A DNA stretch of 57,134 nt from Candidatus Woesearchaeota archaeon (GCA_964641875.1 CAZXLU010000001.1:1-57134), one strand, 5' to 3'. Numbered from the stretch's first letter, positions 3,963 through 23,507 are shown. The notes: generated by a model not told the origin, from the letters alone. Made by a program: numbers and translations.

Positions 3963-4760
3963 ATGGAAGAGTATAGATTTGATCCGATAGACCTTACATT
4001 TTCACTTGTTAGCAATGAAAAAGAGGATTGCAAAGAATGTTTATACAAAAAAGATGAAATAAAAACAATTGAATTTAGAAATGGATACTTAAAGATATAC
4101 GAAATAAAAGATAGGTTACAGCCATCAAAATACGAATTAACTGGAGATTTCTTCAAGAAATCAAATGCCCATGGATATGAAGAAATAATAGTTGAAAACG
4201 ATAAACACTCTTCCAATTTTAGAAGTTATTCAGCGGACGACATAGAAAAGCTCCTTTTAATAATAAGCCAAAGAATAGAAGAAATTAAAGGATATGATGT
4301 AGGAGAGAACGTGTCTATAAGCAGATACATAAATGGACATGATTATTGGGATGTGGTTTTAATGCCAATACCTAGACATACCATAGATAAATGTTTTGTA
4401 TGTCAGGATATAAAAAACGTGGGGAACAGGGAGGTATTCAAAACTGAAAACATAATTGCATACATACCTTTTTCACCGAATAGAAATGAGATAGTTAATA
4501 TTACAACAAATAAGCATGTAAGCATAGAACAGTTGGATAGCGTAATCGCATTTGACATTGCCAATTTGATAATAAAAATAATAAAGAGAATAAAAAACGA
4601 ATTAACAATAAACATAATTCAATCTGGCACTAACCATTTTTACATTTCTATATTTGCAGGGAACATTGATCCAATAGAAGCTATTGGTGTGAAAAGAATA
4701 AAATATTCGCCAGAAGAAACTGCAAAGAAACTTAGTGAAGAATTAAACAATGGAATTTAA
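3963..4760 (+). CDS. GalT-like (HIT superfamily branch III) paralogue lacking the HxHxQ active site
   Basis: Aligns by eye along its length to the GalT-like protein at 26984-27967 (GYEEIIVENDKHS vs GYCEVIIETPKHD; IIAYIPFSPNRNEIVNITTNKHV vs FIAIAPFGSRFTAESMILPKRHV). The position of HSHSQ reads WDVVL. Its ATG directly follows the secD stop. Confidence 0.55.
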   Translation: MEEYRFDPIDLTFSLVSNEKEDCKECLYKKDEIKTIEFRNGYLKIYEIKDRLQPSKYELTGDFFKKSNAHGYEEIIVENDKHSSNFRSYSADDIEKLLLIISQRIEEIKGYDVGENVSISRYINGHDYWDVVLMPIPRHTIDKCFVCQDIKNVGNREVFKTENIIAYIPFSPNRNEIVNITTNKHVSIEQLDSVIAFDIANLIIKIIKRIKNELTINIIQSGTNHFYISIFAGNIDPIEAIGVKRIKYSPEETAKKLSEELNNGI

Positions 4761-5661
4761 TGTAAATACACTAAAAACAATGACAGTCGTAATAATTCTA
4801 CTTGCTGCATTTGCAGCAATAATATATTCTTATCCTTTAAGACCATTTGTTTTTTCACACGCTACAAATAATAATTCATCAAACATAACTAACTCTGTAA
4901 AACTGTCAAATTTCCTAGCTAGATACAATATAAATTTAAGTAAGCTAAGCGACAAAGATCTTTACTACTTTTATGGTGGATTACAAAATAATTCAATAAT
5001 AGTAGGTTGCAATTATGAGCTTTATCCTTCAATTCCTTCTGGGCAGATACCATCAAATAGCCTTCAAAAGGAATATGAAAATATTTTAAAGGATATCGCT
5101 GCAAGCTCGATATGTTCTGTAAATAATTACACGAATTGCAATAATTATGATGAGAACCTTAGTTCATTTATAGAAAAGAGTATGAATTCTACACAAATAG
5201 GGGAACTTTTTAACTATACATATGCACAGATCAAAGGTTATTACAGTGAAATAAACGCTTCTGGACTAAAAAACAATACAATAGTTCTACCATTAAAATA
5301 TGACATTAAACTGTTCAATTCAAGTAAAAACACTTCTATGGAAGTAAATGCAATTGTTAAAATGAAGCAAATGCCAATTAATATAGTATTCTATAATAAT
5401 GGAAGCATCTTTGATTATAAAAAAGAAGTCGGGGTATACGGCCCTTTTCAATTTCCAGTATACAGACTTATAAACGCCAGTAGCTGCAGCCCTTCCACTA
5501 TATTTAATATTGTAGTTAATCCACGGTCTTTTTCCTCAAAAACTTACACAAGCCTATATAAAAGTTTGGGCAATTATACAAACATATGTATAATAACAGG
5601 TTCAAACAACTGCAATTCGACTGAAATGAGAAATTTGAACATGTCTTTCTATGCTAACTAA
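4750..5661 (+). CDS. N-terminally anchored or secreted protein rich in N-glycosylation sequons
   Basis: 303 aa. N-terminal hydrophobic segment (MTVVIILLAAFAAIIY), many NxS/T sequons and several Cys. Overlaps the upstream gene by 11 nt. Confidence 0.55.
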   Translation: MEFNVNTLKTMTVVIILLAAFAAIIYSYPLRPFVFSHATNNNSSNITNSVKLSNFLARYNINLSKLSDKDLYYFYGGLQNNSIIVGCNYELYPSIPSGQIPSNSLQKEYENILKDIAASSICSVNNYTNCNNYDENLSSFIEKSMNSTQIGELFNYTYAQIKGYYSEINASGLKNNTIVLPLKYDIKLFNSSKNTSMEVNAIVKMKQMPINIVFYNNGSIFDYKKEVGVYGPFQFPVYRLINASSCSPSTIFNIVVNPRSFSSKTYTSLYKSLGNYTNICIITGSNNCNSTEMRNLNMSFYAN

Positions 5662-6154
5662 AAAAAATTATTATGTGTATTTTATAATTATTACACTTAT
5701 AGTATTAACTGGTTTGTTTTTTTATTATCAAAATTACTCGCTACAAAAAACATATGAATTCCACAGAATAAATTTAAACATGTCGGGCATGTGTTCTCCT
5801 GGAAAACCGGCTTTTGTGATTTATTACGCTGATAATTGCAAAACGTGTACGTCTACATTAAATTCCTTCAAAAACGTGACATCGCTATTCGGACTCTGGG
5901 GGAATAACACATTCTATAGTGGATATTTCTGTGCATGGACATTTAACATTTCGAGTTACAATGAAAACCTGTCAAATGTACCTTATACAGCCATATCCCT
6001 TTATAATTCTGTAGGAAAAAATTTAGTACCTATGATCATTTTCAATGGAGAATACTATAAAATAGGTGGGTTCAAAAACAATGAAACAGCGTATTATGAT
6101 ATACTGCACTATATATGCATATCTACAAACAACTCAGAACCGCAATGCAGCTAA
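5651..6154 (+). CDS. Membrane-anchored thioredoxin-fold protein (CxxC)
   Basis: N-terminal TM (YYVYFIIITLIVLTGLFFYY). The beta-strand plus CxxC reads FVIYYADNCKTCTS, and a cis-Pro-loop-like LVPMIIFNGEYYKIGG follows, which is the classic Trx-fold layout. Overlaps the upstream gene by 11 nt. Confidence 0.55.
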   Translation: MLTKKNYYVYFIIITLIVLTGLFFYYQNYSLQKTYEFHRINLNMSGMCSPGKPAFVIYYADNCKTCTSTLNSFKNVTSLFGLWGNNTFYSGYFCAWTFNISSYNENLSNVPYTAISLYNSVGKNLVPMIIFNGEYYKIGGFKNNETAYYDILHYICISTNNSEPQCS

Positions 6155-6401: not shown

Positions 6402-6936
6402 TCCCTATATCTAAGCCGGCTTTTACTATTGATATCATCGCTCCCGGACGACGTTCTTCCAATTTTAGAATAAAACTAAGGATAGCATTTTCCATACCTT
6501 TCCTTTCTCTTTTTCCAATATCCCTTCTCTTTAACAAAAAAAATGAATAAATCTCATTTTCTGAAATATTAAATAAAGGACTAAAAAACCCGTCACCCTT
6601 TACCTTCAACCCTTTATTTTCAGAAAAAAGAAAAAATTTCATTACTTCGATGGCAAAGTCCTCTAAGGTGTATGACTTAAGCTTTATTTCTTCATTATAT
6701 TTATTATCTACAAATAAAAAGCTGAGAAAAGCATAACCATATTTATTTTCTCTCATAACTTTAAAAGTTTTACCTCTTAAGCCGTTAGAGATTATATTAC
6801 TTCTAACTCTCCTTATAAGCATCCTTTCAAAATGTTTTTTGCACAAGTGTTGTTTTAGATAATTAGAATAAAATACGGATTTCCTACCACAGATAGCACA
6901 GTTATTGATTTTATCCATAAATATTAAAATGCACAT
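6394..6936 (-). CDS. Zinc-ribbon protein resembling the N-terminus of TtuA/Ncs6 tRNA 2-thiolases; PP-loop absent
   Basis: CAICGRKSVFYSNYLKQHLCKKHFERMLIRRV matches the CxxC...LCxxHF N-terminal finger of TtuA/Ncs6. The position of SGGKDS reads ENKYGY. The protein is only about 175-180 aa. The true start may be MDKINN at 6918. Confidence 0.45.
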   Translation of the reverse strand: MCILIFMDKINNCAICGRKSVFYSNYLKQHLCKKHFERMLIRRVRSNIISNGLRGKTFKVMRENKYGYAFLSFLFVDNKYNEEIKLKSYTLEDFAIEVMKFFLFSENKGLKVKGDGFFSPLFNISENEIYSFFLLKRRDIGKRERKGMENAILSFILKLEERRPGAMISIVKAGLDIGII

Positions 6937-6952
6937 ATCTAATATATCTAAT

Positions 6953-7669
6953 ATGGTTGCGAAAATTATAGTTATAATGAGCCCAAAGGGAGGAGTTGGG
7001 AAGACTACTATATCTGTTAATTTGGCGACTGCTTTGTCTGAACTTGGTAAAAAAACACTGTTGATAGATGCAAATCTAGAAACGCCACATGTTGCAGTTT
7101 ATTATGGTTTCGTGGGATTCAAGTATTCTTTCGAAGATCTGCTTGAGGGTAAAGCTAAAATTGAAGATGTAATATATAAAGGAGAAAACGAAAATTTTCA
7201 CTTATTACCTGCAAGAGTTTTGAAAGATAGTAACAAAGTTATAAACAAATTAGTAAATATAAATTCCTATATAAAAGAAGTAAACGAAAGGTATGATTTC
7301 ATAATAATAGATTCAAAACCTTCTTATAATATAGACTTCATAAAATTGATAAACGCTGCCAACAGTTTAATAGTAAGTAATCTTGAGATAACTTCGATTA
7401 TAGAAGCGAAAAAATTAAAAGAAAAACTTGATGAATTTAATATAAATGTGATAGGGTTAATTCTAAATAAATTTAACTATCATATAACTGAGCAGATAAC
7501 AGAAAATGAGGCGGCAGATATAACAAATATAAAAAACGTATGGAAAGTTAGAGAAGACAACATAGTTTATAGATCTCTTAAATATGGCGTGCCTGTTATT
7601 ATATCTGCACCAAAGAGCTGGATCTCTAAGGATATAGTAAAAATTGCTAAAGATTTAATTAAACTATGA
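6953..7669 (+). CDS. minD: MinD/ParA-family P-loop ATPase
   Basis: Deviant Walker A: IIVIMSPKGGVGKTTISVNLATAL. Walker B-like FIIIDSKP. I prefer the ATG at 6953 over the TTG at 6905 because it avoids overlap with the divergent gene. Confidence 0.75.
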   Translation: MVAKIIVIMSPKGGVGKTTISVNLATALSELGKKTLLIDANLETPHVAVYYGFVGFKYSFEDLLEGKAKIEDVIYKGENENFHLLPARVLKDSNKVINKLVNINSYIKEVNERYDFIIIDSKPSYNIDFIKLINAANSLIVSNLEITSIIEAKKLKEKLDEFNINVIGLILNKFNYHITEQITENEAADITNIKNVWKVREDNIVYRSLKYGVPVIISAPKSWISKDIVKIAKDLIKL

Positions 7670-7833
7670 GATATAGGATAGTAAAATGCCCAAAATGTGG
7701 AAAATATAGAAAAACTTCTTCTATTAAGAACGTAAAATGCTTTTTCTGCGGACATATATTTAATGCAAGATCGCATATAGTAAGCGAAAAAACGTATAAA
7801 AATGCTGTAAATAAAGAAGTCAAATTTAGATGA
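7666..7833 (+). CDS. Small zinc-ribbon protein (55 aa)
   Basis: Not on ORF track. MRYRIVKCPKCGKYRKTSSIKNVKCFFCGHIF... has two CxxC pairs. Its start overlaps the minD stop (ATGA). Its stop lies 1 nt before the tRNA. Confidence 0.55.
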   Translation: MRYRIVKCPKCGKYRKTSSIKNVKCFFCGHIFNARSHIVSEKTYKNAVNKEVKFR

Positions 7834-7834
7834 T

Positions 7835-7906
7835 GCCTTGGTAGCTCAACGGCAGAGCATCTGCTTCGTAAGCAGGAGGTTGTGGGTTCGAAACCCACCC
7901 AAGGCT
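7835..7906 (+). tRNA. tRNA-Thr (anticodon CGU)
   Basis: Hand-folded cloverleaf. Acceptor GCCUUGG/CCAAGGC, D stem GCUC/GAGC, anticodon stem UCUGC/GCAGG with loop UUCGUAA, T arm GUGGG-UUCGAAA-CCCAC. No encoded CCA. Confidence 0.85.
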
Positions 7907-7949: not shown

Positions 7950-8381
7950 GTGAAAGGCCAACAAAACCTTGAATTATTGCTTGTATTCAGCATAGCTATT
8001 GCAATAATAGCCAGCATATTCATAGTGATATTCTCTTTCTTTCCTGGATTAACAAGTTCAACCACTGTGCCTAGCTATTCTGGTTTTTCTGGTTTTTCTC
8101 TAAAACAAGTGTACCTCCCATCGAAATCATTGTACAACATTGAATTACAAAACATGCTTAATGAGAATATAAAAATTGATAAGATATCTCTTATAGTCAA
8201 TGGTGTTAACTATACAAATTTTGTATGCTCAAAAACATATTTACAAGCCTTACAAACAACGGAATGTAATTTATCTGAAAACTTTGGAAATTCGTTCACA
8301 GGTACAGGGTATATATACTACACACCCACGAATATATCCTTCTCTCCAACAATTGCATCGGGTGGTAATGTAATAAATTGA
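7950..8381 (+). CDS. Class III signal peptide (pilin-like) protein
   Basis: GTG start. MKGQQNLELLLVFSIAIAIIASIFIVIF has a KG/Q cleavage motif with Glu at +5 and a hydrophobic helix. At 143 aa it is in the pilin size range. Confidence 0.6.
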   Translation: MKGQQNLELLLVFSIAIAIIASIFIVIFSFFPGLTSSTTVPSYSGFSGFSLKQVYLPSKSLYNIELQNMLNENIKIDKISLIVNGVNYTNFVCSKTYLQALQTTECNLSENFGNSFTGTGYIYYTPTNISFSPTIASGGNVIN

Positions 8382-8424
8382 TAGAGTTAGATATTTATAC
8401 TTATAAATTTTTTAAATATGAATT

Positions 8425-8835
8425 ATGGGAGCATCCAAATACATACATGCAAATGAAATTGCAATTTATAAGAATGAAGACAGGAAGAAGGAATTGCTTA
8501 AAGAAGTAAGGAACAAACCGATTATATTTAGAGTAGAGAAACCTACAAAATTAACAAGAGCAAAGGCCTTAGGGTATCATGCTAAACAAGGATACATAAT
8601 AGTTAGGGTCAAAGTAAACAAAGGTGATTTTAGAAGGCCCAGACCAAACCATGCAAGAAGGCCCAGTAAAAGCGGGATATACTACAAATTGGCAGTTAGT
8701 AAAGAGGATATAGCAAAAAATAGAGCTGCAAAAGTTTATAGAAATATGAACGTTCTGGGGGCTTATTTTTTAATAGAAGATGGGAAAAGTAAGTGGTTTG
8801 AGGTTATTCTATTAGATAAGAAAAAAGTAGTTTAA
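8425..8835 (+). CDS. rpl15e: 50S ribosomal protein L15e (short form)
   Basis: VEKPTKLTRAKALGYHAKQGYIIVRVKV...RRPRPNHARRPSK...KWFEVILLD matches the conserved L15e core. It ends just after the WxEVILxD block, so the usual C-terminal tail is missing. Confidence 0.8.
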   Translation: MGASKYIHANEIAIYKNEDRKKELLKEVRNKPIIFRVEKPTKLTRAKALGYHAKQGYIIVRVKVNKGDFRRPRPNHARRPSKSGIYYKLAVSKEDIAKNRAAKVYRNMNVLGAYFLIEDGKSKWFEVILLDKKKVV

Positions 8836-8896
8836 CTGGTAAAACACTAATAAAATAACATAAAAACAATTTAAATCCTGATAGGTTAAAGATTAA

Positions 8897-9406
8897 ATGG
8901 ATGTAGAACAATTCTTTTTCTTTGAGATATTGATAGGTATAGTTATAGCTTTAACCATGTTTTTCCTTTTTTATAATAACTACTCATCTATATTTCCAAT
9001 AGGTTGTGATTCATCCACTAACATATTACAAAATCAATTCACAAGCGCGGAATATGGTTATGCAAACAGGATGGAAGGAACTCCCTTATTTAGATGCTAT
9101 GATGTAAATGCATGTTTTAATGCAGCTACGGCACAACAAACTTGTATAAGACATTGGTGTTATTATTACCATTATGTTGATGGAAAGGGTAATCAACGAG
9201 CTGTGCAAAATTGTATAGCTGCACCCAACTCTACAATAACAAATGCATGCAGTGCGGTCTCCCCCACTAATACAGCGGATTTAGAAAGCTGTGCTGATAG
9301 CACTATTGTTGCTAATAATGCAACAGATATACAAAATTGTGCTATAAATGTGCCTTCATGCATATCTGGTGACGGGCCTTACTGTCCTCCGTGCGTTGGA
9401 CAATGA
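8897..9406 (+). CDS. N-terminally anchored cysteine-rich exported protein
   Basis: 169 aa. Hydrophobic N-terminus (FFFFEILIGIVIALTMFFLF). 12 Cys counted in the translation, plus sequons. Confidence 0.5.
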   Translation: MDVEQFFFFEILIGIVIALTMFFLFYNNYSSIFPIGCDSSTNILQNQFTSAEYGYANRMEGTPLFRCYDVNACFNAATAQQTCIRHWCYYYHYVDGKGNQRAVQNCIAAPNSTITNACSAVSPTNTADLESCADSTIVANNATDIQNCAINVPSCISGDGPYCPPCVGQ

Positions 9407-9407
9407 T

Positions 9408-9569
9408 ATGAACAAAAAAGCTAGTGTAGAATGGAGACTTATATGGATAATATTGATAATAATTACCGCTTTGGCTGCTATAGCTTTAATAGTCTTTTTA
9501 TTTTATGCAAGTTCCCACAGCACATCCCCTTTTTCCTATTTTGGTAATCTATTAGGAGGTGGCTCGTAA
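9408..9569 (+). CDS. Mini single-TM protein (53 aa), related to the 14562-15207 family
   Basis: I prefer the internal ATG at 9408, two nt after the upstream stop. MNKKASVEWRLIWIILIIITALAAIALIVFLFY... resembles MNKKGVESYILLIIITLIVL of the 14725-14865 gene at its N-terminus. Confidence 0.45.
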   Translation: MNKKASVEWRLIWIILIIITALAAIALIVFLFYASSHSTSPFSYFGNLLGGGS

Positions 9570-10459
9570 TGGAAGAGGGAATACTACTTACAATAGTATT
9601 TGTAATATTCGTTATAGTAGCTGGCATAATTCTTTCAGTTGTTTCATTCTCCATAATAACCTCATTTGGGACTTTGAATTTTGGTATAAGCTGTTTCACC
9701 GCATTTACACAATATAAAATAGTAAATTCTTTCCTCGCACCTTTTACATCAGTAACATCTCTGTTTGGTTTTTCCAATATAGTTGTAAGCCCAACGCAAT
9801 CTATACAGGTGGAAAGAGACTGTTTGCAAAGTGCAAATATAAATGAAAAATCAGTTTCTGGTTTTTCTTCTCAATTTTATACAGAGGCTTCATCATGTTT
9901 TAGCCTTTTCTCTGGAGGCAATGCAGCTGTTGGCTCTGAGATAATATCTCCAAAAAACATGAACCAGATGTTTAATTGCTATCAAGGATCAATAATAAAC
10001 CAAAACAAAAATATAAATTATTCATCAATAATAAGTTATATTGATAGCAACTATAATGGTAGTTACCCTTTACAGATTGTATTTATAACAAACGGGAGTA
10101 ATGGCAAAGCACAGTATGTCTCCCCAACAGACAGACTATTAAATAGCACTTATTTGATTTCATATTTTGGATATCCGAATTCTGGGACAAAAAACTGTGA
10201 AATAAGTTTTTCTGATCAATGTAAATATGTTTCAAAATACGATCAGCCAATAATAAATAATCCTGCAGTGTGCGATTATTCAAATGAGACCATAAACCAA
10301 ACTAAAGAAACTGTAAGCTCCCTAAGCAATGGTAACCCATCAAATAATATAATAAATGAAACTTCTGGCTGCAATTACTACGTTCCTCTATGTGGACAAT
10401 TAAGTAACTATATGATTTATAGCCAGAGCAGAGTTTTTGTATGTATACCACAAAGTTAA
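9569..10459 (+). CDS. N-terminally anchored cysteine-containing surface protein
   Basis: 296 aa. N-terminal TM, 10 Cys and many sequons. Shares the [ST]SC[FW]..[FY].G.N block and the C-terminal R.V[FI][VY].C ending with the next gene. Confidence 0.5.
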   Translation: MEEGILLTIVFVIFVIVAGIILSVVSFSIITSFGTLNFGISCFTAFTQYKIVNSFLAPFTSVTSLFGFSNIVVSPTQSIQVERDCLQSANINEKSVSGFSSQFYTEASSCFSLFSGGNAAVGSEIISPKNMNQMFNCYQGSIINQNKNINYSSIISYIDSNYNGSYPLQIVFITNGSNGKAQYVSPTDRLLNSTYLISYFGYPNSGTKNCEISFSDQCKYVSKYDQPIINNPAVCDYSNETINQTKETVSSLSNGNPSNNIINETSGCNYYVPLCGQLSNYMIYSQSRVFVCIPQS

Positions 10460-10499
10460 ATAAAAAACATTATTTATCTTAAAAATTACATAAAATTGA

Positions 10500-11975
10500 A
10501 TGGCAGAAACACCTGGAGAGAGTTTCATATTTATCGTATTAGCGGTGATATTCATAATAGTAATCATAGCAATAGCCGGTTATTTATTACTTGTTGGAGT
10601 AAACCTTTCAAATAGCGGAATATGTTATGTTAGCTCTGAATTTACAAATTTCTATTATAATGGTTTGTGCGTATCGAATTTCTTCTGTTTAAGCAGTACA
10701 CTTAAAGCTTTAGGAGTGGCCCCTCCACTTTTTGGATGTACAACTTCAACTAGCGCTTACGGACCAGGAGCTTCGCCATCCCAAGCATTTTCATCAATAT
10801 CCACTCAACTTACCTCCTGTTGGAATGAGTATGGTGCAAACCAAGGATTAACTGTATTGCCTGACGGCCCAGCAACATGCGGAGTAACAGATATAAACAT
10901 CAATCAAAATATAACGATAAATAACCTTACACAGTACTTAGAAAGCAACGCTTATACCACTGAAATAAGCTGTTTAAACCATACTGCAGCACAATCTTGT
11001 GCTGACCCACTCTCTTCATCAAATCCGAATGGATTTACTTGTGATTTAAATAACCCAAGCGTTTGCGAAGCCCCATCATCAAATTACTTTAAATGTAGCA
11101 GCACCTCTGGTTATTCATTCAGCAATGGATATTCAAAGACTTACATTAATTTAACAGGCAGCAAGCCACCGACTGCTGCATTAAATCTAACAAGTGACCT
11201 TTGCGAAGCTTCCCAAGGTTGCTCATTTAATACTACATTAGATACTTGTTCAACACCAAGTGGTAATACCGCAGTGTGTACAGATTTATATAAAAATTTC
11301 TGTAATGGAAATAATTGCACGGTTGGGTTCGATAAAACCACTAAATCTTACGAATCACCGCCAGCATGTACATTGACAGAGCCAGTAAAAAGTACATCGA
11401 TAATAAATGTTTCGTATGCAGATTATCTGAAACCAGGCGACAACCTCATATTTAGCTACAAAAACCTAAGTAATAGTAGCACTAGTGGATTTGTACCTCC
11501 AAACAGCAGCAAATCAATAAATAAGGCACAAATCTACATTGTTTATTTAAATTCCTTAGTTGGGACGAGATTTCCACCTCACAGTATAAGCCTGCCAAGC
11601 GTATGTGAACCTGCGACTTTCCTAAATAATTATCCTACGGCAGGAATTGAATATGAATGTAGCAGAGCTGTTGTATCGGCTATAGGAGCGAAATTAGTGT
11701 CCCCTACAAACCCAGGCATAATTGTAGGAACGGCTCTGGCTGGTTTTACTGGAGCGGAATGCTTAAATAATACCTTATGTAAGGAGGATATTGCTCCAAA
11801 TGCATTGGATTACACTGGAAAATTAGCTTACGCATCATTCCGTGCTACTGGTTTAGAACAGTGTGCACAGTCTCTTTTCTATTATTTTACTGCGTCATTG
11901 CCAAAGACAATTGGAATATCAAAACCTAACTTTTTAGGTAGAAATGTGATTTATGTATGTGCTGTAACAAAGTAA
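10500..11975 (+). CDS. N-terminally anchored cysteine-rich surface protein (paralogue of 9569-10459)
   Basis: 491 aa. N-terminal TM (FIFIVLAVIFIIVIIAIAGYLLL), 24 Cys counted and many NxS/T. Ends in RNVIYVCAVTK, compared with SRVFVCIPQS in the preceding gene. Confidence 0.55.
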   Translation: MAETPGESFIFIVLAVIFIIVIIAIAGYLLLVGVNLSNSGICYVSSEFTNFYYNGLCVSNFFCLSSTLKALGVAPPLFGCTTSTSAYGPGASPSQAFSSISTQLTSCWNEYGANQGLTVLPDGPATCGVTDININQNITINNLTQYLESNAYTTEISCLNHTAAQSCADPLSSSNPNGFTCDLNNPSVCEAPSSNYFKCSSTSGYSFSNGYSKTYINLTGSKPPTAALNLTSDLCEASQGCSFNTTLDTCSTPSGNTAVCTDLYKNFCNGNNCTVGFDKTTKSYESPPACTLTEPVKSTSIINVSYADYLKPGDNLIFSYKNLSNSSTSGFVPPNSSKSINKAQIYIVYLNSLVGTRFPPHSISLPSVCEPATFLNNYPTAGIEYECSRAVVSAIGAKLVSPTNPGIIVGTALAGFTGAECLNNTLCKEDIAPNALDYTGKLAYASFRATGLEQCAQSLFYYFTASLPKTIGISKPNFLGRNVIYVCAVTK

Positions 11976-12430
11976 AAGGAGCAAGTGGCATAGAGTATTT
12001 TATAGTTATAATCTTATTAATATCATTTTTGATAATAGGAGTTGTAATAGCCAGTTCAGTATTTCACTTTGCTATTTTTCCGGCGGGTAGGATATCATCA
12101 AGTAGCGGCTCGCCATTGCCATGCAGTATAAATGTAACTAATGTAAGCAACGCAAATAATCCAAATACCTTCAAAATAGAGGTATCTGATGGTAGTCTAG
12201 GATTAGTATATAAAATTTATATGAATAACGTTAATTCTAGCAATCCATCAAATATCAAGGCTGTTGGTAATTACACAGTTGGTATAAACTCTTTTTCAAA
12301 GTCTTTTCAAATAAAGAACCCTGGGATAAACACTATAATAATAGGAAATACTACTGGCAGCAATGTGAGCATAGACGGCGTTAAATACACGGCTGGAGGG
12401 CAATGCGAAAGTGAGATATACTCAACTTAA
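11957..12430 (+). CDS. Class III signal peptide (pilin-like) protein
   Basis: MCCNKVKGASGIEYFIVIILLISFLIIGVVIAS has KG/A cleavage, Glu at +5 followed by Tyr, then a hydrophobic helix. 157 aa. Overlaps the upstream gene by 19 nt. Confidence 0.6.
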   Translation: MCCNKVKGASGIEYFIVIILLISFLIIGVVIASSVFHFAIFPAGRISSSSGSPLPCSINVTNVSNANNPNTFKIEVSDGSLGLVYKIYMNNVNSSNPSNIKAVGNYTVGINSFSKSFQIKNPGINTIIIGNTTGSNVSIDGVKYTAGGQCESEIYST

Positions 12431-13953
12431 AAGAATGGATTTAATGTTCCATCTTGTGCTATAGTTTCTGGGTTATCTTTTATTTTTTTTATTATTCTCT
12501 TCATGCTTCTTTCCCTTTTCTTTGAAATCCAATAATAACCTTCATCATTTGTACCTTTTGTTATCAATATGAATATTTTCCCTGCAGAGAACCTGCCCAC
12601 CCTACCCCTTCTTTGTATGTTTCTTATTGCACTGGGTATTGTTTCATAGAATATAGCTAGATCAACGCCTTTTATTGACATTCCTTCTTCGCTAACACTT
12701 GTAGAAACGAGCACGTTATATGTGCCTTCTTCAAATTCTCTTATTATATTAACCTGTTCTTTCTGTGACAGGCCTCCCTTTCCTTGGCCTATAAATCTAA
12801 CAGGTTTAATATTATCTAAAGAGCTTATTTTAGAAAATATAACATCAACTGTATCTCTATACTGAGCAAATACTATTGCTTTTTTATCCTCTGAAAAATA
12901 TTCTTTGAGTATGTAAACCAGTTTATCAAGTTTTGGATGTTCTACCCCGTTTTTAAGAAGGTATTCTGCTCTTTCTTTTAAATAAATAAATTTGGGATCC
13001 GAAGAAAGTTCTTTATCTGTCTTTGCTTTACCTTTTTCTATTTTTAGTATAAAATTTAAAAATGCTAATAGGCTTTGGGTGGTAACTAAACTATATGCAT
13101 GGTAAAGCTTCATCAATTTTGAAGTAAGTATTATGCCCCTTATCAAGTAGAATGATCTTTTTCCACTTAACATCTGTTTTTGCAGATTTTTTTGCAGAAG
13201 CAATATTGTTACTTTATTAATTCTACTCTGTGGAACGTTTTTAAGTAACCCGGTATCCTGCAATTGATTTATTGTATCTTTTATCATTTGCTTTACCAAA
13301 TTAGAAAGATTTGTAAGTTCTATTGGCAAATCTATTATAACAGGCTCTATTTCTTTTTTCTTTATGTACCTTACAACGTCCTCGTCTTCATCAGATTTTA
13401 TCTCTACGTTTGTTATACCTAAATTAGAGCATATCTTTTTTATCTTTTCTCTCTCTGATGCGGGGGAAGCTGTCAATCCTAGTATCAATGGATGAGCACT
13501 TTTCTGCATGTATTCTCTAGCTATCTTTACATAAGAATAATTACCAATAGTGTGGTGAGCTTCATCTACGACTAAAAGACTAAAACTTGAGAAGTCTATC
13601 CTATCATTTTCCATATCGTTCTCAATAGTTTGTGGAGTTGCAAAAATTAGCTGATTTTCTTTATAAATAATTTCTCTTTCCTTACTAGAAACCGAACCGC
13701 TAGATACTTCCAATTTTATATCCATCAAATTCGAGAAAGTTTTCATGTGTTGGTTTATAAGTGGCTTTGTAGGTGCAAGAAAGAGAATCTTTGAATTTGG
13801 ATATTTTTCTAATCTATAATCTACGAGCATTGCGCTTATTATTGTCTTACCTAGGCCTGTGGGTAAAACAACCAAAGTATTGCCTGATTTACACTTTTCA
13901 AATATTGCCTTTTGATAATCTCTCTCTTCTATTTTTTCCTTGAACAGTGTCAT
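12427..13953 (-). CDS. hef: Hef/FANCM/Mph1-type SF2 helicase, helicase module only
   Basis: RDYQ...LVVLPTGLGKT (motif I), LLVVDEAHH (DEAH), LTASP (III), IQRRGRVGR (VI). At 508 aa there is no room for an ERCC4 nuclease domain. Confidence 0.7.
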   Translation of the reverse strand: MTLFKEKIEERDYQKAIFEKCKSGNTLVVLPTGLGKTIISAMLVDYRLEKYPNSKILFLAPTKPLINQHMKTFSNLMDIKLEVSSGSVSSKEREIIYKENQLIFATPQTIENDMENDRIDFSSFSLLVVDEAHHTIGNYSYVKIAREYMQKSAHPLILGLTASPASEREKIKKICSNLGITNVEIKSDEDEDVVRYIKKKEIEPVIIDLPIELTNLSNLVKQMIKDTINQLQDTGLLKNVPQSRINKVTILLLQKNLQKQMLSGKRSFYLIRGIILTSKLMKLYHAYSLVTTQSLLAFLNFILKIEKGKAKTDKELSSDPKFIYLKERAEYLLKNGVEHPKLDKLVYILKEYFSEDKKAIVFAQYRDTVDVIFSKISSLDNIKPVRFIGQGKGGLSQKEQVNIIREFEEGTYNVLVSTSVSEEGMSIKGVDLAIFYETIPSAIRNIQRRGRVGRFSAGKIFILITKGTNDEGYYWISKKRERSMKRIIKKIKDNPETIAQDGTLNPFF

Positions 13954-14561: not shown

Positions 14562-14723
14562 TTAGTAAGCATTTTTAAAACCGGAAGTTATAGATGCACT
14601 TATACCTGAAAAGAAATTAGATATGTCTTTTGCCAGTGTAGACGGGCCTGCAAAGATGATATATACTAGTATCAGAGTTATCCCGAGTATTACAGCTATA
14701 ACATAAAACCATACTGATTCCAT
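14562..14723 (-). CDS. Mini single-TM protein s1 (53 aa)
   Basis: Not on ORF track. MESVWFYVIAVILGITLILVYIIFAGPSTLAKDISNFFSGISASITSGFKNAY. Its tail is paralogous to that of the 15034-15207 gene. Confidence 0.5.
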   Translation of the reverse strand: MESVWFYVIAVILGITLILVYIIFAGPSTLAKDISNFFSGISASITSGFKNAY

Positions 14724-14724
14724 A

Positions 14725-14865
14725 CTATACTTTTGGAACTGAAGGTATTAATTTATGCAAAGTTCCTGGAGAAAACAAAAACAAGTAAAAAATTATTATC
14801 AAGATTAAAACTATTAAAGTTATTATTATCAACAAAATATAGCTTTCAACTCCTTTTTTGTTCAT
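14725..14865 (-). CDS. Mini single-TM protein s2 (46 aa), class III-like N-terminus
   Basis: Not on ORF track. MNKKGVESYILLIIITLIVLILIIIFYLFLFSPGTLHKLIPSVPKV. One nt spacers on both sides. Confidence 0.5.
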   Translation of the reverse strand: MNKKGVESYILLIIITLIVLILIIIFYLFLFSPGTLHKLIPSVPKV

Positions 14866-14866
14866 A

Positions 14867-15037
14867 TTAAGTATAGCTGCTTACATTTAAATTGCTGGAT
14901 TTCGAAATAAAGGCCTTAAAAAGGTCAGTGAATTTATAAGGTGTGAAAAGCTCTAAAAATATTATGATTAAAAGGATGCCTATTACTATGAGTATTATAT
15001 ATAGAAAAACACCACTAACGACTCCTTTGCTTTTCAT
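14867..15037 (-). CDS. Mini single-TM protein s3 (56 aa), class III-like N-terminus
   Basis: Not on ORF track. MKSKGVVSGVFLYIILIVIGILLIIIFLELFTPYKFTDLFKAFISKSSNLNVSSYT. Its start overlaps the s4 stop (ATGA). Confidence 0.5.
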   Translation of the reverse strand: MKSKGVVSGVFLYIILIVIGILLIIIFLELFTPYKFTDLFKAFISKSSNLNVSSYT

Positions 15038-15207
15038 ATCCCTTTACCGTAAAGCCAACTGAATGAGAAAACACTAGTTATATCTTTACCTATTGTAGAT
15101 CCTGCTCCTGAGAATATCAAAGCTATCACTATGCCTGCGAAGAGGACTATTATTGCCAGTATAATAGCTATTATCTCTGTAATCGGCATTTGTCCTTTAA
15201 TATTCAT
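15034..15207 (-). CDS. Mini single-TM protein s4 (57 aa), class III signal-like
   Basis: Not on ORF track. MNIKGQMPITEIIAIILAIIVLFAGIVIALIFSGAGSTIGKDITSVFSFSWLYGKGI has a KG/Q motif. Its start lies 2 nt after the stop of the 577-aa gene. Confidence 0.55.
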   Translation of the reverse strand: MNIKGQMPITEIIAIILAIIVLFAGIVIALIFSGAGSTIGKDITSVFSFSWLYGKGI

Positions 15208-15209
15208 AT

Positions 15210-16943
15210 TCAAGGTATAGTTCTAGGCGGTTTCCAATTTAGCAAACCGACCCTCTTCTTTAGTTCATCATAAATGTACATGGCATCTTTATTTGATAGA
15301 AACAATCCAGTTTCTAAAGCTGCTTTAATGCTTGAACGATTAAAACGTCTTGCATTTACAAGCATCTCATAAATTTCTGCTTCTGATTCTCCAAATACCG
15401 TTTTATGCTTGCTTTCGCCCTGAGAAAAACCGGAAAATGCCTTTGATATCCCTACAAAATCATCTTTAAAAGAGCGATAGATATCACTTATAGCATAATT
15501 TTTTTGTTGTTTCTTTGGTTCTTTCTTTTTCTTTTCCTCAGCTTCAGCTTCTTTTACGTATTTATCCAAATCTTCCTTTATAATGCTAAGGGACCTAAAA
15601 ACTGCTTGGTCAACAGCAGCAAATACTGTTTTTTGTATCTTTGCTGCATTTGCTTCTCTGTATAGATAAAACTCGTCTGGTGTAAAACAATAAGGAAACA
15701 AATTAAAACTAAGAGTACCCTCATAAGGAGGTTGTATAGGATCTTTACTAGGCTTCTCCTTAAAGTCCATTTTTAGTTTAATAAGAGAATATACAACAGG
15801 CCCATACTTTTTAACCCTGTCATATATAAAAGACCTTCTGTTTTCTTCATGGCCCCTAGTAAGGAGATCTCCTGCTGCACTTTTAGGATAGACATTTACG
15901 GGTATCTCAGGTCCTTTATTGCCAAAGAGTTTTGTGTATTCAACATTGTACTCTCCAATGTATGTTTTTTTAAAGCCTATAGAAGTAACAGAGAAAAGTT
16001 CGTTCTCGAATATATCTGGTTTTGAAGCCGCCGACATGTATGCCTCGGCATTTTTAGCAGTATTTAAACCCATTCTAGAACGCATTGCAAGGTATGTTGA
16101 AGCCCAGTCTACATATAAGTCAAATGACCCCATTTGACTTTTGAGATACTGCAGAAGCATGCTTTTTCTATTTCTTAAATCCTTTTCATTTATCTCTTTC
16201 CATTTTTCGTATTCTATATAACGATTTTTTAATATATTTTTATACTGCTCATTTCTGTTTATTTGATTAACTTCTTTTAAGCTTTTTACTTGGTAGAACA
16301 CTGATACTATGTCTATAAAACCCGGACCGCCTTGGCTTTGAGTAGGAGAACGTGAAAGAGCAGACAAGCTTGCTCCACCCTTTCTAGCATCAACAATATC
16401 AAGAAAGATTCTCTTAAGTGCTAATTCTGCTGCTTCTGCTTTTTCTTTGTTATTCTCCTTAATTTCGTCATAAAAGTATATATTCCTATCTAGTTCTTTT
16501 AGCTCAATTGTTGTAGCGATTAAAGATTTGAGTACTGCATTTATGCTTCCAAGTAATTGTATAATCCTGTCTTCAAGATTTTTTTGTTTCTCAAAAACCA
16601 TATTCATTAAAGAAGAAAGGGCAGAAGGATCGACTGATTCTGCAATTTTAAGACTTCTATAACCCCTTTCAGAAAACATCTGCATTACCGAGAGATATTC
16701 CGGCTGAAAGTGATATCTTTTTACAATGTCTTTTGTAAAATGATAACCACCAGGATTTCCTACAAAACCGGGATCTATAAGCTCTTCTGAATTTTTGTAC
16801 CTAAAATCAATTTTTCCACTATAATGAGTTTCTGCGCTTGAGCCTATAAATTCTAATTCGCTGATATAACTGTTTATCTCTCCCAGATTCGATCCGCTGC
16901 CTCTGAAATTTTTTGCAATTCTCTTGACATCCTCTATGTTCAT
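15210..16943 (-). CDS. Orphan 577-aa soluble protein, first gene of the mini-protein operon
   Basis: Long clean ORF with no TM segment and no Walker A. It has a coiled-coil-like central region and a KE-rich patch (EAEEKKKKEPKKQQK). I recognise no family. Confidence 0.7.
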   Translation of the reverse strand: MNIEDVKRIAKNFRGSGSNLGEINSYISELEFIGSSAETHYSGKIDFRYKNSEELIDPGFVGNPGGYHFTKDIVKRYHFQPEYLSVMQMFSERGYRSLKIAESVDPSALSSLMNMVFEKQKNLEDRIIQLLGSINAVLKSLIATTIELKELDRNIYFYDEIKENNKEKAEAAELALKRIFLDIVDARKGGASLSALSRSPTQSQGGPGFIDIVSVFYQVKSLKEVNQINRNEQYKNILKNRYIEYEKWKEINEKDLRNRKSMLLQYLKSQMGSFDLYVDWASTYLAMRSRMGLNTAKNAEAYMSAASKPDIFENELFSVTSIGFKKTYIGEYNVEYTKLFGNKGPEIPVNVYPKSAAGDLLTRGHEENRRSFIYDRVKKYGPVVYSLIKLKMDFKEKPSKDPIQPPYEGTLSFNLFPYCFTPDEFYLYREANAAKIQKTVFAAVDQAVFRSLSIIKEDLDKYVKEAEAEEKKKKEPKKQQKNYAISDIYRSFKDDFVGISKAFSGFSQGESKHKTVFGESEAEIYEMLVNARRFNRSSIKAALETGLFLSNKDAMYIYDELKKRVGLLNWKPPRTIP

Positions 16944-20547: not shown

Positions 20548-22293
20548 TTAAGCAATGCTACCGAAAGAAACGGAAGGCATTGCCCCGCTTGGAGGATAAG
20601 ATCTCGCTATCAACCACTTAATATAGTTGTAATCATAACCACCACCACTGCCTGCAGCAACCATTAAAGTAGGGTAATTAAAAGCACTTGGAATACTACC
20701 ACTCATATCTAAAGGTATGTTAATATTAGAGAAGTTTTCTAATGAACTAGCTTGATTTATAACACCTGCTTCAGCTTGAGTACTTGTTGAGACAATTAAT
20801 TCTTCGGTATAAGTTTGCGGAGTAGTTGAAGGCAAGTTATTTACTGTTGATATTATCTTATTATCCTGACTATCTAAAATTACAGGTATATAACTTCCGC
20901 TACAATTCATACCGATTGGTTCAACCATCAACATTACAGAGCCACTAGAAGCTACATTGCCACCACCACAAGTTACAACAGGAGGACCAACTAGAGAATT
21001 AACATTTCCAAATAACGATAATATCTCCCCATCTGTTGGACTTGTTCCACCATAAAAATTCCAAGAGTATTCCACTATGCTTGGAATCTCAGGCATAGGT
21101 TTAGGAGGTAAAATATGAGTGCCTTCACTACCTATGTCATTTATCATCTCTATCCCTTGTGATGAAGGTGTTGGAGAAAAAGATCCACTAGTAACATAAC
21201 CAGTCCAACCATCAAAACCTGCACTTCCTAAGAAATCTCCATATTCTAAAAATACATCTTGTCCATCATCGTATTCTGCGTATGTAGAAGAAAGTTGAGG
21301 GGCTTCTCCCGTGTTTACCGTGTTTAAAACATTTTCATTCTGCGGGAAAAAATCCATATAAACTGTTGTTGAAGTAAAACTGCCCAATTTAAGCCAATAA
21401 GTTACCACTTGATTATTAGATGTACCATTTTCTCTCCAACTTGGGATTACAGTTGAATTTGGATACAAAAATTCTATGTTCTGTAAGTTAGAGTTTGCGT
21501 ATGAATTGTAATCCTGCATATTTACTGTTACTTCTTGCTGAAATGGATTTGGAGTTGCAGATGAAGAAGTTATAGTCAAAGGAACGTAAGCTATTGGTTG
21601 TTGAGCTGAAACGCATTGAGAGGCATAATCTCCAGAGCTTGAAGGCGTTACTTCAATAACATACTCGGGATAGTAAGCAGAAGCAGTTACTGATCCCGAA
21701 GCTGTACTTGGCGATGAAGAAGAAGTAGATGAGACTGTACTTCCAAGATAAACCCCGTTTGTTGATAAAACACTAATATTAAATGTAACTGGAGAAGTCA
21801 CTGGTTGAAAAGAGTAGTTATAAAATTCTAAATTGTATGATATTTTAGTGCCTGAAACACTGTAGGACTGGGAGATAAAAGAGATAGCAAATCTTAAGCC
21901 CAATACTACTTGCCCATTAACAGACTTAACAAATGCATCATACGTTCCTCCAGTCAAAGGTAGCATTCCAGATATATTTTCTGCAGGTTTGGCTACTCCC
22001 AATTCCGTAGTAGTCTGAAGTTTTATTATGTCACCACACAAAAAAGAATCTTTTTGCTGCAATAAAGGTATAGTTATAGGAAAAGCTTGCATAGAACCTA
22101 CTCCTTGAGAAGAAACGTAATCAGCCTCCTTTGAAATTGAACCAGCAACGTTCTTTATCTGACTTGCTGATGAACTTGATGAAAAAGAACCATAAAAAAG
22201 CATTACATAGATGAGAAAAGATGCTATTATAGCTACCCCTATTCCGATTATTATAACATATTCTGTCGAGTACTGTGCCTTATTTGATAGCAT
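20548..22293 (-). CDS. Large class III signal peptide protein with DUF2341-like and LamG-like regions
   Basis: MLSNKAQYSTEYVIIIGIGVAIIASFLIYV has A/Q cleavage and Glu at +5 followed by Tyr. There is a Ser/Thr-rich linker. NIEFLYPNSTVIPSWRENGTSNNQVVTYWLKLGSFTSTTVYMDFF fits the DUF2341 pattern (DiRF.d..g..l.y.iE.w......vWVk). It is followed by DVFLEYGDF...WTG. Confidence 0.6.
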   Translation of the reverse strand: MLSNKAQYSTEYVIIIGIGVAIIASFLIYVMLFYGSFSSSSSASQIKNVAGSISKEADYVSSQGVGSMQAFPITIPLLQQKDSFLCGDIIKLQTTTELGVAKPAENISGMLPLTGGTYDAFVKSVNGQVVLGLRFAISFISQSYSVSGTKISYNLEFYNYSFQPVTSPVTFNISVLSTNGVYLGSTVSSTSSSSPSTASGSVTASAYYPEYVIEVTPSSSGDYASQCVSAQQPIAYVPLTITSSSATPNPFQQEVTVNMQDYNSYANSNLQNIEFLYPNSTVIPSWRENGTSNNQVVTYWLKLGSFTSTTVYMDFFPQNENVLNTVNTGEAPQLSSTYAEYDDGQDVFLEYGDFLGSAGFDGWTGYVTSGSFSPTPSSQGIEMINDIGSEGTHILPPKPMPEIPSIVEYSWNFYGGTSPTDGEILSLFGNVNSLVGPPVVTCGGGNVASSGSVMLMVEPIGMNCSGSYIPVILDSQDNKIISTVNNLPSTTPQTYTEELIVSTSTQAEAGVINQASSLENFSNINIPLDMSGSIPSAFNYPTLMVAAGSGGGYDYNYIKWLIARSYPPSGAMPSVSFGSIA

Positions 22294-22330: not shown

Positions 22331-23476
22331 ATGGAACGGAGTAATAAGACAAAAATTGCGATTTTTGTTCCTTGGATAAAAAGTAAGGGAGGAGTTGAAC
22401 GTACAATACTCAGATTTATAGAAGATAAAAAGTACGAATGGGATATCTATACATTTTTTTATGATAAAAATAAAACATTTCAAGAATTTCAGAAATTCAA
22501 TGTTATACTAATCGGACAAGCAAAAACAGAAGGATTCTTTGCAAAAGGGATAAATCTTTTTTTAAAACTTATATTCACAAAAATAGAAAACATTGAAGAT
22601 TATGATATATTTATTGTATCTACTGCGGGGATAGCAGAGTTCATAACATTTAGAAATAAAAACAAAAAAACCATTGCCTTGTGCCATACTCCCTTAAGGG
22701 TTGCACATACAATGTATGAGTACTACAAGAGTCAAAGCTTAAGAAACAAGCTGACTTTACCAATAATAATACCCTTTTATAGGAAGCTTGAAAAAATGGC
22801 ATGGAAGAGAATCAATTATGCGATAGTCTTAAGTCAAGAAGTAAAAAAAAGGATAATACAATACCAGCTTTTGAAAGAAAACAAAATATTTAACATAGGG
22901 CCTTCTGTAAACTACTCAAAGATAAAAAACAAAAATATAAAGACGAAGAAAATTATATTTTATCCAAGCAGATTTATAAGGTATAAAAGACAGGATCTTG
23001 CAGTAAAAGCATTCAATCTTTCTGGTATATCAAAACGGGGCTTTAAATTGATTATGGCTGGATTCGTTGAAGATAAAGAATACTTCAAAGAAATAAAATC
23101 AATGGAAAATGAATCTATCTCTGTAGTAGGCAATATAACTGAAGAAAAACTAAATGAGATATACAGCAACTGTTATGCAACACTTTTCTTAGCGATAAAT
23201 GAAGATACTGGCTTAACACCTTTAGAATCATTGGCCTATGGCAAGCCTGTAATCTCTGTAAATGAAGGAGGGCCAACAGAATTTATAAAAAACGAAGTAA
23301 ATGGCCTGCTTGTTAATGCTGATGAAAAAGATATAGCAGACGCACTAAAAAATATAACAAATAAGAAATTATACAATAAGCTTAAAAATGGTGCAAAAAA
23401 ATCTAAAAGATATGATGAAAGAAATTCAATTAAAAAAATAGACCAAGCTATAGATGAGATAATTAAAAAAGTATAA
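22331..23476 (+). CDS. GT-B retaining glycosyltransferase (GT4-like)
   Basis: N-terminal IAIFVPWIKSKGGVERT. The C-terminal EDTGLTPLESLAYGKPVISVNEGGPTEFI contains the E-x7-E motif. Confidence 0.75.
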   Translation: MERSNKTKIAIFVPWIKSKGGVERTILRFIEDKKYEWDIYTFFYDKNKTFQEFQKFNVILIGQAKTEGFFAKGINLFLKLIFTKIENIEDYDIFIVSTAGIAEFITFRNKNKKTIALCHTPLRVAHTMYEYYKSQSLRNKLTLPIIIPFYRKLEKMAWKRINYAIVLSQEVKKRIIQYQLLKENKIFNIGPSVNYSKIKNKNIKTKKIIFYPSRFIRYKRQDLAVKAFNLSGISKRGFKLIMAGFVEDKEYFKEIKSMENESISVVGNITEEKLNEIYSNCYATLFLAINEDTGLTPLESLAYGKPVISVNEGGPTEFIKNEVNGLLVNADEKDIADALKNITNKKLYNKLKNGAKKSKRYDERNSIKKIDQAIDEIIKKV

Positions 23477-23507
23477 ATTTATAAAGTAATACATAATATG
23501 AATTAAT

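Follow-up and report, generated by a model that had tools for sequence, protein, structure and literature searches.

A plus-strand run of genes for pilin-like and cysteine-rich, membrane-anchored surface proteins, with no assembly machinery beside it, raises the question of what these proteins build and with which machine they build it. The run lies at 7950–12430 of a 57,134 nt stretch of DNA from Candidatus Woesearchaeota archaeon (GCA_964641875.1, CAZXLU010000001.1:1-57134), which was analysed as a whole and is called the window below. Since the nearest relatives of the window proteins are found in 'Candidatus Parvarchaeota / Parvarchaeum' metagenome-assembled genomes (MAGs), ARMAN-4 and ARMAN-5 among them, the window is a contig of the Parvarchaeales (DPANN; Ca. 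Parvarchaeum, 'ARMAN-4/5'-type) from an acid-mine-type community; its G+C content is 30–36 %. The cluster is probably a pilin module, which in the Parvarchaeales would serve a DPANN Tad/Epd-like type IV pilus (T4P) system. Synteny in a sister lineage, class III leaders on distant relatives and a published gene table (PMC10134863 Table S6) together point to a T4P-like module that has become detached from its machinery. The seven plus-strand open reading frames (ORFs) named in a first-pass annotation, which was made from the sequence alone, are all present where it had placed them (Table 1). Its view that pilin-like and disulfide-rich, probably glycosylated surface proteins belong together at this site was borne out by conserved gene order, cysteines and leaders.

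The sister-lineage operon and its leaders

An exhaustive search of 1.84 billion representative proteins with the profile of E491, a 491-aa cysteine-rich member of the cluster, returned only 29 relatives. Scans of genomes and metagenomes with the distant relatives of E491 led to four GTDB species and three further contigs, referred to here as the sister lineage. Where the contig is long enough the gene order is conserved, namely ATPase, TadC-like, B169-like, D296-like, E491-like, s59-like, s53/s56-like and MKAQG/LPLNTIV-type pilins, as read in L035 (= L121), L036 and L122, and in L051 and L033, which belong to one MAG. The T2SSE ATPase of 751–761 aa carries the Walker A motif GTRGSGK[TS] and scores above threshold for PF00437 (4.9e-20 and 9.8e-19), and the TadC-like platform protein of 683–690 aa has approximately nine transmembrane (TM) segments. 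The B169 profile matches proteins with 12–14 Cys (2.7e-16 in L036, 9.8e-13 in L035, 1.7e-12 in L034, 1.6e-9 in L051 and 1.6e-13 in L122), while the E491-like proteins have 28 Cys. Matches to the D296 profile are weak but syntenic (4.8e-8 in L036, 1.7e-4 in L035 and 1.4e-4 in L122). Homologues of s59 are located 3′ of the E491-like gene in L035, L120 and L122, and those of s53 in L033–L036, L120, L122 and L123. B169, D296 and E491 thus appear, from this order, to be an ancient, co-inherited trio placed between TadC and the small pilins.

The distant E491 relatives are 460–580 aa long and more charged; their Cys framework is retained, as is the L.C.Y.. motif at the C-terminus. Several of them have canonical leaders: MKLNKKG/EIAVV (P0075), MKKKG/MLE (P0073), MKG/LSN (P0074) and SKG/ELTTQQ (P0085). 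The Gly-Glu of the acidic start MAETxG/E of E491 aligns with KKG/E of these relatives, and the B169 homologue in L036 starts with MNRKG/LAMQQ. The leaders suggest that E491 belongs to a family of large, Cys-rich class III-signal proteins and that its leader decayed in the Parvarchaeales. The first-pass annotation had taken the cluster for an uncharacterised kind of apparatus; the synteny with a T2SSE ATPase and TadC makes it instead part of a known kind of machine. That the apparatus lacks assembly machinery holds for the window but not overall, as ATPase and TadC precede the homologues in the sister lineage.

Table 1. Coordinates and sequence features of the cluster members, of rpl15e and of a possible further substrate, in window order
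Feature	Position	Strand	Description
A143	7950-8381	+	143-aa pilin-like; hydrophobic N-terminal helix, 2 invariant Cys, 3 conserved sequons
rpl15e	8425-8835	+	PF00827, 3.9e-35
B169	8897-9406	+	169 aa, N-terminal anchor, 12 invariant Cys, short acidic leader MDVEQ/F..FE
C53	9408-9569	+	53-aa mini pilin-like; leader M[ND]KK[GA]/SVEWR, single hydrophobic helix
D296	9569-10459	+	296 aa, N-terminal anchor, 10 conserved Cys, leader M(E/S)(E/Q)G/I
E491	10500-11975	+	491 aa, N-terminal anchor, 24 invariant Cys, conserved start MAETxG/E
F157	11957-12430	+	157-aa pilin-like; canonical leader [KR]KG/[AST]S.(V/I)E, Glu at +5
s53	14562-14723	-	53-aa mini pilin-like; starts M-E-S-V-W here, KKG/(I/V)TEAT in distant orthologues
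s46	14725-14865	-	46-aa mini pilin, MNKKG/VESYILL; same position in 26 Parvarchaeales loci
s56	14867-15037	-	56-aa mini pilin, MKSKG/VVSG here; KK[GA]/V(V/I)SG among orthologues
s59	15034-15213	-	59-aa mini pilin, MNMNIKG/QMPITE; conserved C-terminal SFSWL(F/Y)G
p581	20548-22293	-	581 aa, class III-type leader MLSNKA/QYSTEY; no Pfam or NCBIfam match

Conservation, N-termini and cysteines

One genome per GTDB species was scanned, which gave 30 Parvarchaeales loci. The order secF-secD-...-MinD-like-A143-L15e-B169-C53-D296-E491-F157, followed by helicase-GINS-s53-s56-s59-u577, is kept in nearly all of them, and E491 and F157 remain adjacent in all rearranged loci. The cluster was first delimited as 7950–12430; its members there were confirmed, but it extends further, to four tightly packed minus-strand ORFs of 59, 56, 46 and 53 aa at 14562–15213. 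The 46-aa ORF lies below the default ORF-list length and was read directly from the sequence. All four are conserved in 24–27 loci. They follow F157 directly on one strand in the rearranged loci L027 and L028 (C53-D296-E491-F157-s59-s56-s46-s53) and L024 (E491-F157-s59-s56-s46-s53), which ties them functionally to the A143–F157 cluster. Within the plus-strand run, the 1 nt gap between B169 and C53, the 1 nt overlap of C53 and D296 and the 19 nt overlap of E491 and F157, in which the F157 start lies over the E491 stop, suggest translational coupling of B169-C53-D296 and of E491-F157. In a collection of 5.8 billion proteins E491 has 31 cluster representatives, all full length and of 40–100 % identity, and D296 has 28.

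Class III-like N-termini were sought with a heuristic ([KR][GA] within 16 residues, then an uncharged hydrophobic stretch of 18 residues) along with motif inspection. The heuristic picked 6 window ORFs, against none in 50 shuffles, and the leader motifs are conserved over 24–30 orthologues. Chance grouping or an annotation artefact, with spurious small ORFs and the hydrophobic ORFs of an AT-rich genome mistaken for a cluster, would be in keeping with a genome of 32 % G+C, in which ORFs rich in Ile, Leu, Phe and Asn are favoured, and with a sequon density close to that expected from composition. However, all of the ORFs, including those of 46–59 aa, are kept in sequence, order and leader motif in 24–30 species, the shuffles yielded no motif match and the Cys sets are invariant and even-numbered, so that this explanation is effectively refuted and can be given hardly any credence.

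A basic leader ending in [KR][GA] and followed by a hydrophobic helix is present and conserved in A143, C53, F157, s59, s56 and s46. The class III signals read earlier at 7950 (MKG/QQNLE) and 11957 (KG/ASGIEY) are conserved canonical leaders, that of A143 as M[KR][GA]/Q.(S/T)LE in 25 orthologues and that of F157 in 29. C53, described before as a 53-aa single-TM protein, does have one hydrophobic helix, but it also bears a class III-like leader (KK[GA]/SVEW), which is conserved in 27 orthologues. Profile–profile comparison with hhalign links the small proteins and F157 through their N-terminal regions at 80–95 % probability, with 95 % for s56–s53 and 94 % for s56–C53. In s53 the basic leader is seen only in distant orthologues (...NKKG/(I/V)TEAT...), the clade of the window starting with M-E-S-V-W. 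B169, D296 and E491 start with MDVEQ-, MEEG- and MAETPGE-, respectively, and have no Lys or Arg before the helix in 26–30 orthologues; the N-terminus of B169 reads ...E(E/Q)/F..(F/W)E among orthologues. By sequence, these three would be derived, leader-degenerate relatives rather than canonical class III members.

Such acidic leaders without Lys or Arg, unlike class III signals, could also indicate that the Cys-rich trio consists of N-anchored structural glycoproteins of the unusual ARMAN envelope (an approximately 30 nm wall or periplasm-like space), that only the small class III proteins form a pilus, and that the two sets are neighbours because both are exported. ARMAN cells have a thick wall, periplasmic densities of 5–8 nm and no S-layer (PMC4110969), two more N-anchored, sequon-rich proteins with 6 invariant Cys each are encoded upstream near secDF (4750–6154), and no pilin fold is demonstrable. 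Several observations speak against a purely structural role. In the sister lineage the trio keeps its place, with TadC on one side and the small pilins on the other, distant homologues of E491 and B169 have canonical [KR]G leaders, and E491-F157-s59 stays contiguous through rearrangements. Additionally, residues 7–28 of the E491 N-terminal helix align with the F157 helix as it would be after cleavage, E7 falling on the +5 Glu, although the hhalign probability is only 50 %. The envelope explanation is accordingly considered unlikely.

Counts of 12, 10 and 24 Cys in the three anchored proteins, as reported earlier, were confirmed; A143, B169, C53, D296, E491 and F157 contain 2, 12, 0, 10, 24 and 4 Cys and 3, 3, 0, 7, 13 and 6 sequons, respectively. 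Cys makes up 4.8 % of B169, D296 and E491 together, against 0.53 % in the other genes of the window. Every Cys of A143, B169, D296 and E491 is invariant or nearly so in 25–30 Parvarchaeales orthologues. Those of the trio are kept in 26–30 orthologues with identity down to 38–46 %, and those of A143 in 25 of 25, as is its N128. Poor conservation of the cysteines among homologues, named beforehand as the outcome that would count against the surface-apparatus reading, was thus not what the orthologues show. The Cys numbers are always even, as expected of disulfides in extracytoplasmic domains. 'Dense' was too strong a word for the sequons, since their numbers are near composition-based expectation (observed/expected 7/6.3 in D296, 13/8.8 in E491 and 3/2.1 in B169), but individual sequons are almost invariant, with N137, N142 and N322 of E491 in 29 of 30 orthologues and N175 and N192 of D296 in 30 of 30. 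The proposed paralogy of the 296-aa and 491-aa proteins did not hold (BLASTP E=0.27; hhalign probability 7 % over 17 columns); of the two motifs said to be shared, [ST]SC[FW]..[FY].G.N and R.V[FI][VY].C, each is exact in only one of the two proteins.

Assembly machinery and proposed mechanism

The earlier statement that PilB/FlaI, PilC/FlaJ and prepilin peptidase are absent from the window was confirmed by Pfam scans, gene-call annotation and hydropathy of the unknown proteins. Elsewhere, all Parvarchaeum genomes tabulated, ARMAN-4 and ARMAN-5 included, have one VirB11 ATPase (arCOG01818), one or two TadC (arCOG01812), FlaK (K07991) and FlhG/MinD (arCOG00589), and none has a PilA-family pilin (arCOG02420/03871) (Rao et al. 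2023, PMC10134863 Table S6). In the annotation table of one MAG from that study, the ATPase–TadC pair stands amid housekeeping genes. This machinery without annotated substrates complements the cluster's substrates without nearby machinery.

Membership of an archaellum finds no support in the cluster, in which the archaellin domain PF01917 has no match; FlaH, FlaJ (arCOG01809) and FlaD/E occur only in one Rehaiarchaeum MAG and not in Parvarchaeum (PMC10134863 Table S6). The proteins likewise do not qualify as S-layer proteins, with no S-layer family match in Pfam or NCBIfam and an anchor that is N-terminal. A prepilin peptidase was sought beside the HIT gene of the window, as FlaK adjoins a HIT hydrolase in Jingweiarchaeales; the neighbours of the HIT gene are ScpA and ScpB. 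The 577-aa protein u577 was considered as a degenerate pilus ATPase and rejected, having no similarity to the ATPase (E=0.32) and no Walker A motif by eye.

As the first-pass annotation had supposed, the proteins match no well-described family: Pfam and NCBIfam searches with all cluster proteins and their sister-lineage homologues gave nothing relevant, and nor did searches of the PDB. In the PDB sequence search the alignment profiles of E491 and D296 had 0 matches, and F157 alone gave only noise (E of at least 0.13). The AlphaFold2 model of E491 has a helix at 5–35 and a confident beta-rich core at approximately 190–350, with a mean predicted local distance difference test (pLDDT) score of 59; Foldseek found no match for it in the PDB (best E=3) or BFVD (best E=0.68). 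The D296 model, at pLDDT 38, is unusable. A literature search on the ARMAN locus tags BJBARM4/5 gave nothing.

Several of the results weigh against assignment of the cluster to a T4P-like system. None of the pilin, archaellin, Flp and class III signal models matches any member at E<=1, and structure prediction gives no evidence of a pilin fold in either E491 or D296. No pilus ATPase, platform or A24 peptidase is found among the sizeable ORFs of the window, in which no unexplained polytopic membrane protein is left, and profiles of the sister-lineage ATPase and TadC have no match in the 10 kb on either side of the cluster at any of the 30 Parvarchaeales loci. The machinery in Parvarchaeum is taken from the published table for other Parvarchaeum genomes; in a genome scan with the ATPase alignment the best 80 of at least 586 relatives were all of Woese-, Pace- or Nanoarchaeia type and none was from Parvarchaeum. 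The association with an ATPase is drawn from a small sister clade of four GTDB species plus metagenome contigs, and scans with the B169-like alignment, and in metagenomes with the E491-like one, returned the same small clade only; within it, the T2SSF match of the TadC-like protein is below the Pfam threshold (20.2 vs 25.2 bits). The N-termini of B169, D296 and E491 are acidic instead of carrying the basic class III leader, so that their processing, and even their topology, is a prediction only. The presence of rpl15e means that the cluster is not a clean single operon.

With these points set against the sister-lineage order, the leaders and the published table, a T4P-like pilin module remains the preferred explanation. 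In the mechanism proposed, subunits would insert into the membrane via the N-terminal hydrophobic helix, and a FlaK/PibD-type prepilin peptidase would trim those with a [KR][GA] leader (A143, C53, F157, s59, s56 and s46). Extraction of the subunits from the membrane and their polymerization via the helices would fall to a VirB11/FlaI-type ATPase and a TadC-type platform with genes at another site in the genome. The helix-only proteins of 46–59 aa are probably Flp-like shaft subunits, and the probable identity of A143 and F157 is that of pilins whose small globular domain holds one disulfide. For B169, D296 and E491, which have 6, 5 and 12 putative disulfides and N-glycosylation sequons that are conserved, a role as minor, tip or accessory subunits is probable; they may give an acid-stable adhesive surface for contact with a Thermoplasmatales host. 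In the Parvarchaeales B169, D296, E491 and s53 appear to have lost the basic leader and would start near the 'mature' N-terminus, and thus may need no peptidase. Pili-like fibres between ARMAN and Thermoplasmatales cells have been seen by electron cryotomography, in cells with no S-layer on the ARMAN side (PMC4110969).

A more specific and decidedly speculative version, to which only a small probability is attached, would make B169, D296, E491 and s53 a 'leaderless' class of pilin-like proteins that enter a T4P machine without prepilin peptidase. Its three large members would form an exceptionally disulfide-rich (6+5+12 S-S), glycosylated tip complex, acting as the specific adhesin for attachment to, or bridging with, Thermoplasmatales hosts, which lack a wall, at pH approximately 1.

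The same T4P-membership evidence could also describe a system that is not adhesive, such as a short pseudopilus or piston for secretion or uptake (DNA uptake, bindosome-like assembly or a host-bridge conduit), with the Cys-rich proteins as cargo or cap. Many different minor-pilin-like subunits with no obvious abundant major pilin are typical of pseudopili, ARMAN–host cytoplasmic bridges have been reported (PMC4110969) and C53 has a weak, non-significant match to the bindosome protein BasC (E=0.044). That match is far below threshold, however, and neither the cluster nor the sister-lineage loci hold cargo-type genes (solute-binding proteins, nucleases or a ComEC-like channel), while the fibres observed at ARMAN contacts are pili-like (PMC4110969). 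A pseudopilus is therefore judged quite improbable.

Parvarchaeum ('ARMAN-4/5') depends on contact with other archaea, and in the published tables it has a pilus ATPase, a platform and a peptidase but no recognised pilin. To these, the pilin module proposed here would add approximately ten candidate subunits, of which the three conserved disulfide-rich ones are the obvious candidates for a host-recognition adhesin. They are defined targets for metaproteomics, antibody labelling and electron cryotomography of ARMAN–host contacts.

Neighbouring genes and comparison with known systems

Upstream of A143 are a gene for an archaeal MinD/FlhG-like ATPase at 6905–7669 (+) (TIGR01969, 5.8e-45, below cut-off), a gene for a 55-aa zinc-ribbon protein at 7666–7833 (+) and a tRNA-Thr(CGU) at 7835–7906 (+). 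In Jingweiarchaeales the FlhG gene is directly 5′ of the arCOG01818 pilus ATPase (PMC10134863 tables), and by analogy the MinD-like gene may be a trace of the site where ATPase and TadC stood before they were lost. Further upstream, downstream of secF/secD, are genes for two N-terminally anchored proteins of 303 aa (4750–5661, +) and 167 aa (5651–6154, +), which have the highest sequon density of the window (5.9 and 4.8 per 100 aa), 6 invariant Cys each and no family match; they are kept in 20–23 Parvarchaeales loci and are probably further surface glycoproteins. Between secD and these two genes is that of a 265-aa soluble protein (3963–4760, +) with invariant CxxC pairs (C23/C26 and C144/C147) and a weak match, below cut-off, to the Sulfolobus virus coat protein C-terminal domain (PF12193, E=0.003). 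The gene rpl15e is embedded between A143 and B169 in every Parvarchaeales locus with both, and is absent from the sister-lineage operon.

Downstream of F157, a DEAD/ResIII-Helicase_C helicase is encoded by one 508-aa ORF at 12427–13953 (-). In locus L001 (11928–13455), from an ENA contig with an identical 491-aa protein, the gene table splits the helicase into two genes, of 228 and 287 aa, which could be a frameshift or a gene-calling difference. The gene for u577, a soluble protein with no family match, lies at 15210–16943 (-) and overlaps the s59 start by 4 nt; it is well conserved in the Parvarchaeales (E down to 1e-280) and lies apart from s59 in L024 and L027, which leaves its link to the cluster uncertain. 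Partial homologues of the p581 protein occupy the corresponding position in many Parvarchaeales loci; p581 is possibly a further substrate of the same machinery, its link being weaker than that of the other members. In the stretch 22331–24329 (+), a GT4-family glycosyltransferase gene (PF00534, 9e-28), followed by an ORF at 23508–24329, adjoins the p581 gene and may be relevant to glycosylation of surface proteins.

Outside the Parvarchaeales and the sister lineage, the ATPase family of approximately 760 aa is highly conserved and counts over 5,600 relatives among the Woese-, Pace- and Nanoarchaeia. In 80 ATPase loci the ATPase–TadC pair is often followed by non-homologous, analogous arrays of class III-leader proteins. 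Unrelated arrays of this kind follow the pair in the Woesearchaeota-type loci L041 (12355–17919), L038 (12372–17924) and L112 (12590–17596). The L041 array includes a 1854-aa protein with 104 Cys and the leader MKG/IIEPVAAA, and Woesearchaeota-type arrays also hold 731-, 591- and 427-aa proteins with 12–18 Cys. Some members of the ATPase family (P0122, P0154 and P0160) are 1092–1281 aa long with an extra PF14528 and/or PF14890, which we take to be intein/homing-endonuclease domains, these being presumably intein-containing pilus ATPases.

Bacterial Tad/Flp pili and the EppA-dependent (Epd) pili of Methanococcus have very small, helix-dominated subunits whose short leader ends in Gly, with an acidic residue following a few positions past the cleavage site, and use a TadC-type platform. 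The small subunits of the cluster are likewise helix-dominated, and the G/ASGIEY of F157 resembles the Flp motif G/xxxxEY. Unlike these systems, the cluster has no match to PF04964 (Flp) or PF04021 (Class_III signal), and combines four distinct tandem mini pilins with large Cys-rich subunits. In bacterial T4P and type II secretion systems, minor-pilin or tip complexes (PilVWX-PilY1, GspHIJK) consist of several low-abundance pilin-like subunits, some of them large, which prime assembly and carry adhesive functions. The role suggested for the Cys-rich trio is similar, as an analogy only and not by homology.

T4P of Thermoproteales subclades 4B/4D/4E have multiple conserved Cys in nearly all components, large putative adhesin/minor-pilin subunits and a FleN/MinD-family protein (Makarova et al. 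2016, PMC4858521). Disulfide-rich pilins and large accessory subunits in an extremophile, and a MinD/FlhG-like ATPase gene, here just upstream of the cluster, are common to both. The two differ in that there is no detectable sequence relationship, that one is from DPANN and the other from Thermoproteota, and that no C-terminally anchored S-layer-like partner is present here. The same survey lists nanoarchaeal ATPases whose pilins could not be found (Makarova et al. 2016, PMC4858521).

The closest parallel is with the 'dark matter' proteins with signal peptides that adjoin FlaI/TadC in DPANN genomes, which were inferred to be diverse pilins (Makarova et al. 2019, PMC6393860). Both are fast-evolving, unannotated arrays of proteins with an N-terminal signal/helix that are tied to a VirB11-family ATPase and TadC (framework in PMC4858521), and this is exactly how the sister-lineage loci L035, L036, L051 and L122 are arranged. 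In contrast, the Parvarchaeales array is detached from ATPase and TadC and has rpl15e embedded in it, and in three of its conserved members a very high Cys content goes together with loss of the basic leader. As the pilin nature of unannotated signal-bearing proteins near FlaI/TadC in DPANN has already been published, the gain here is in specifics rather than in principle. Specific to the cluster are protein families without a curated model or structural match and with approximately 30 representatives, their separation from the machinery, and the loss of the basic leader in four members. The whole operon of ATPase, TadC, Cys-rich trio and mini pilins is kept in the sister lineage and split in the Parvarchaeales, and the decay of a class III leader can be followed within one family, from the canonical KKG/E to the acidic MAETxG/E.

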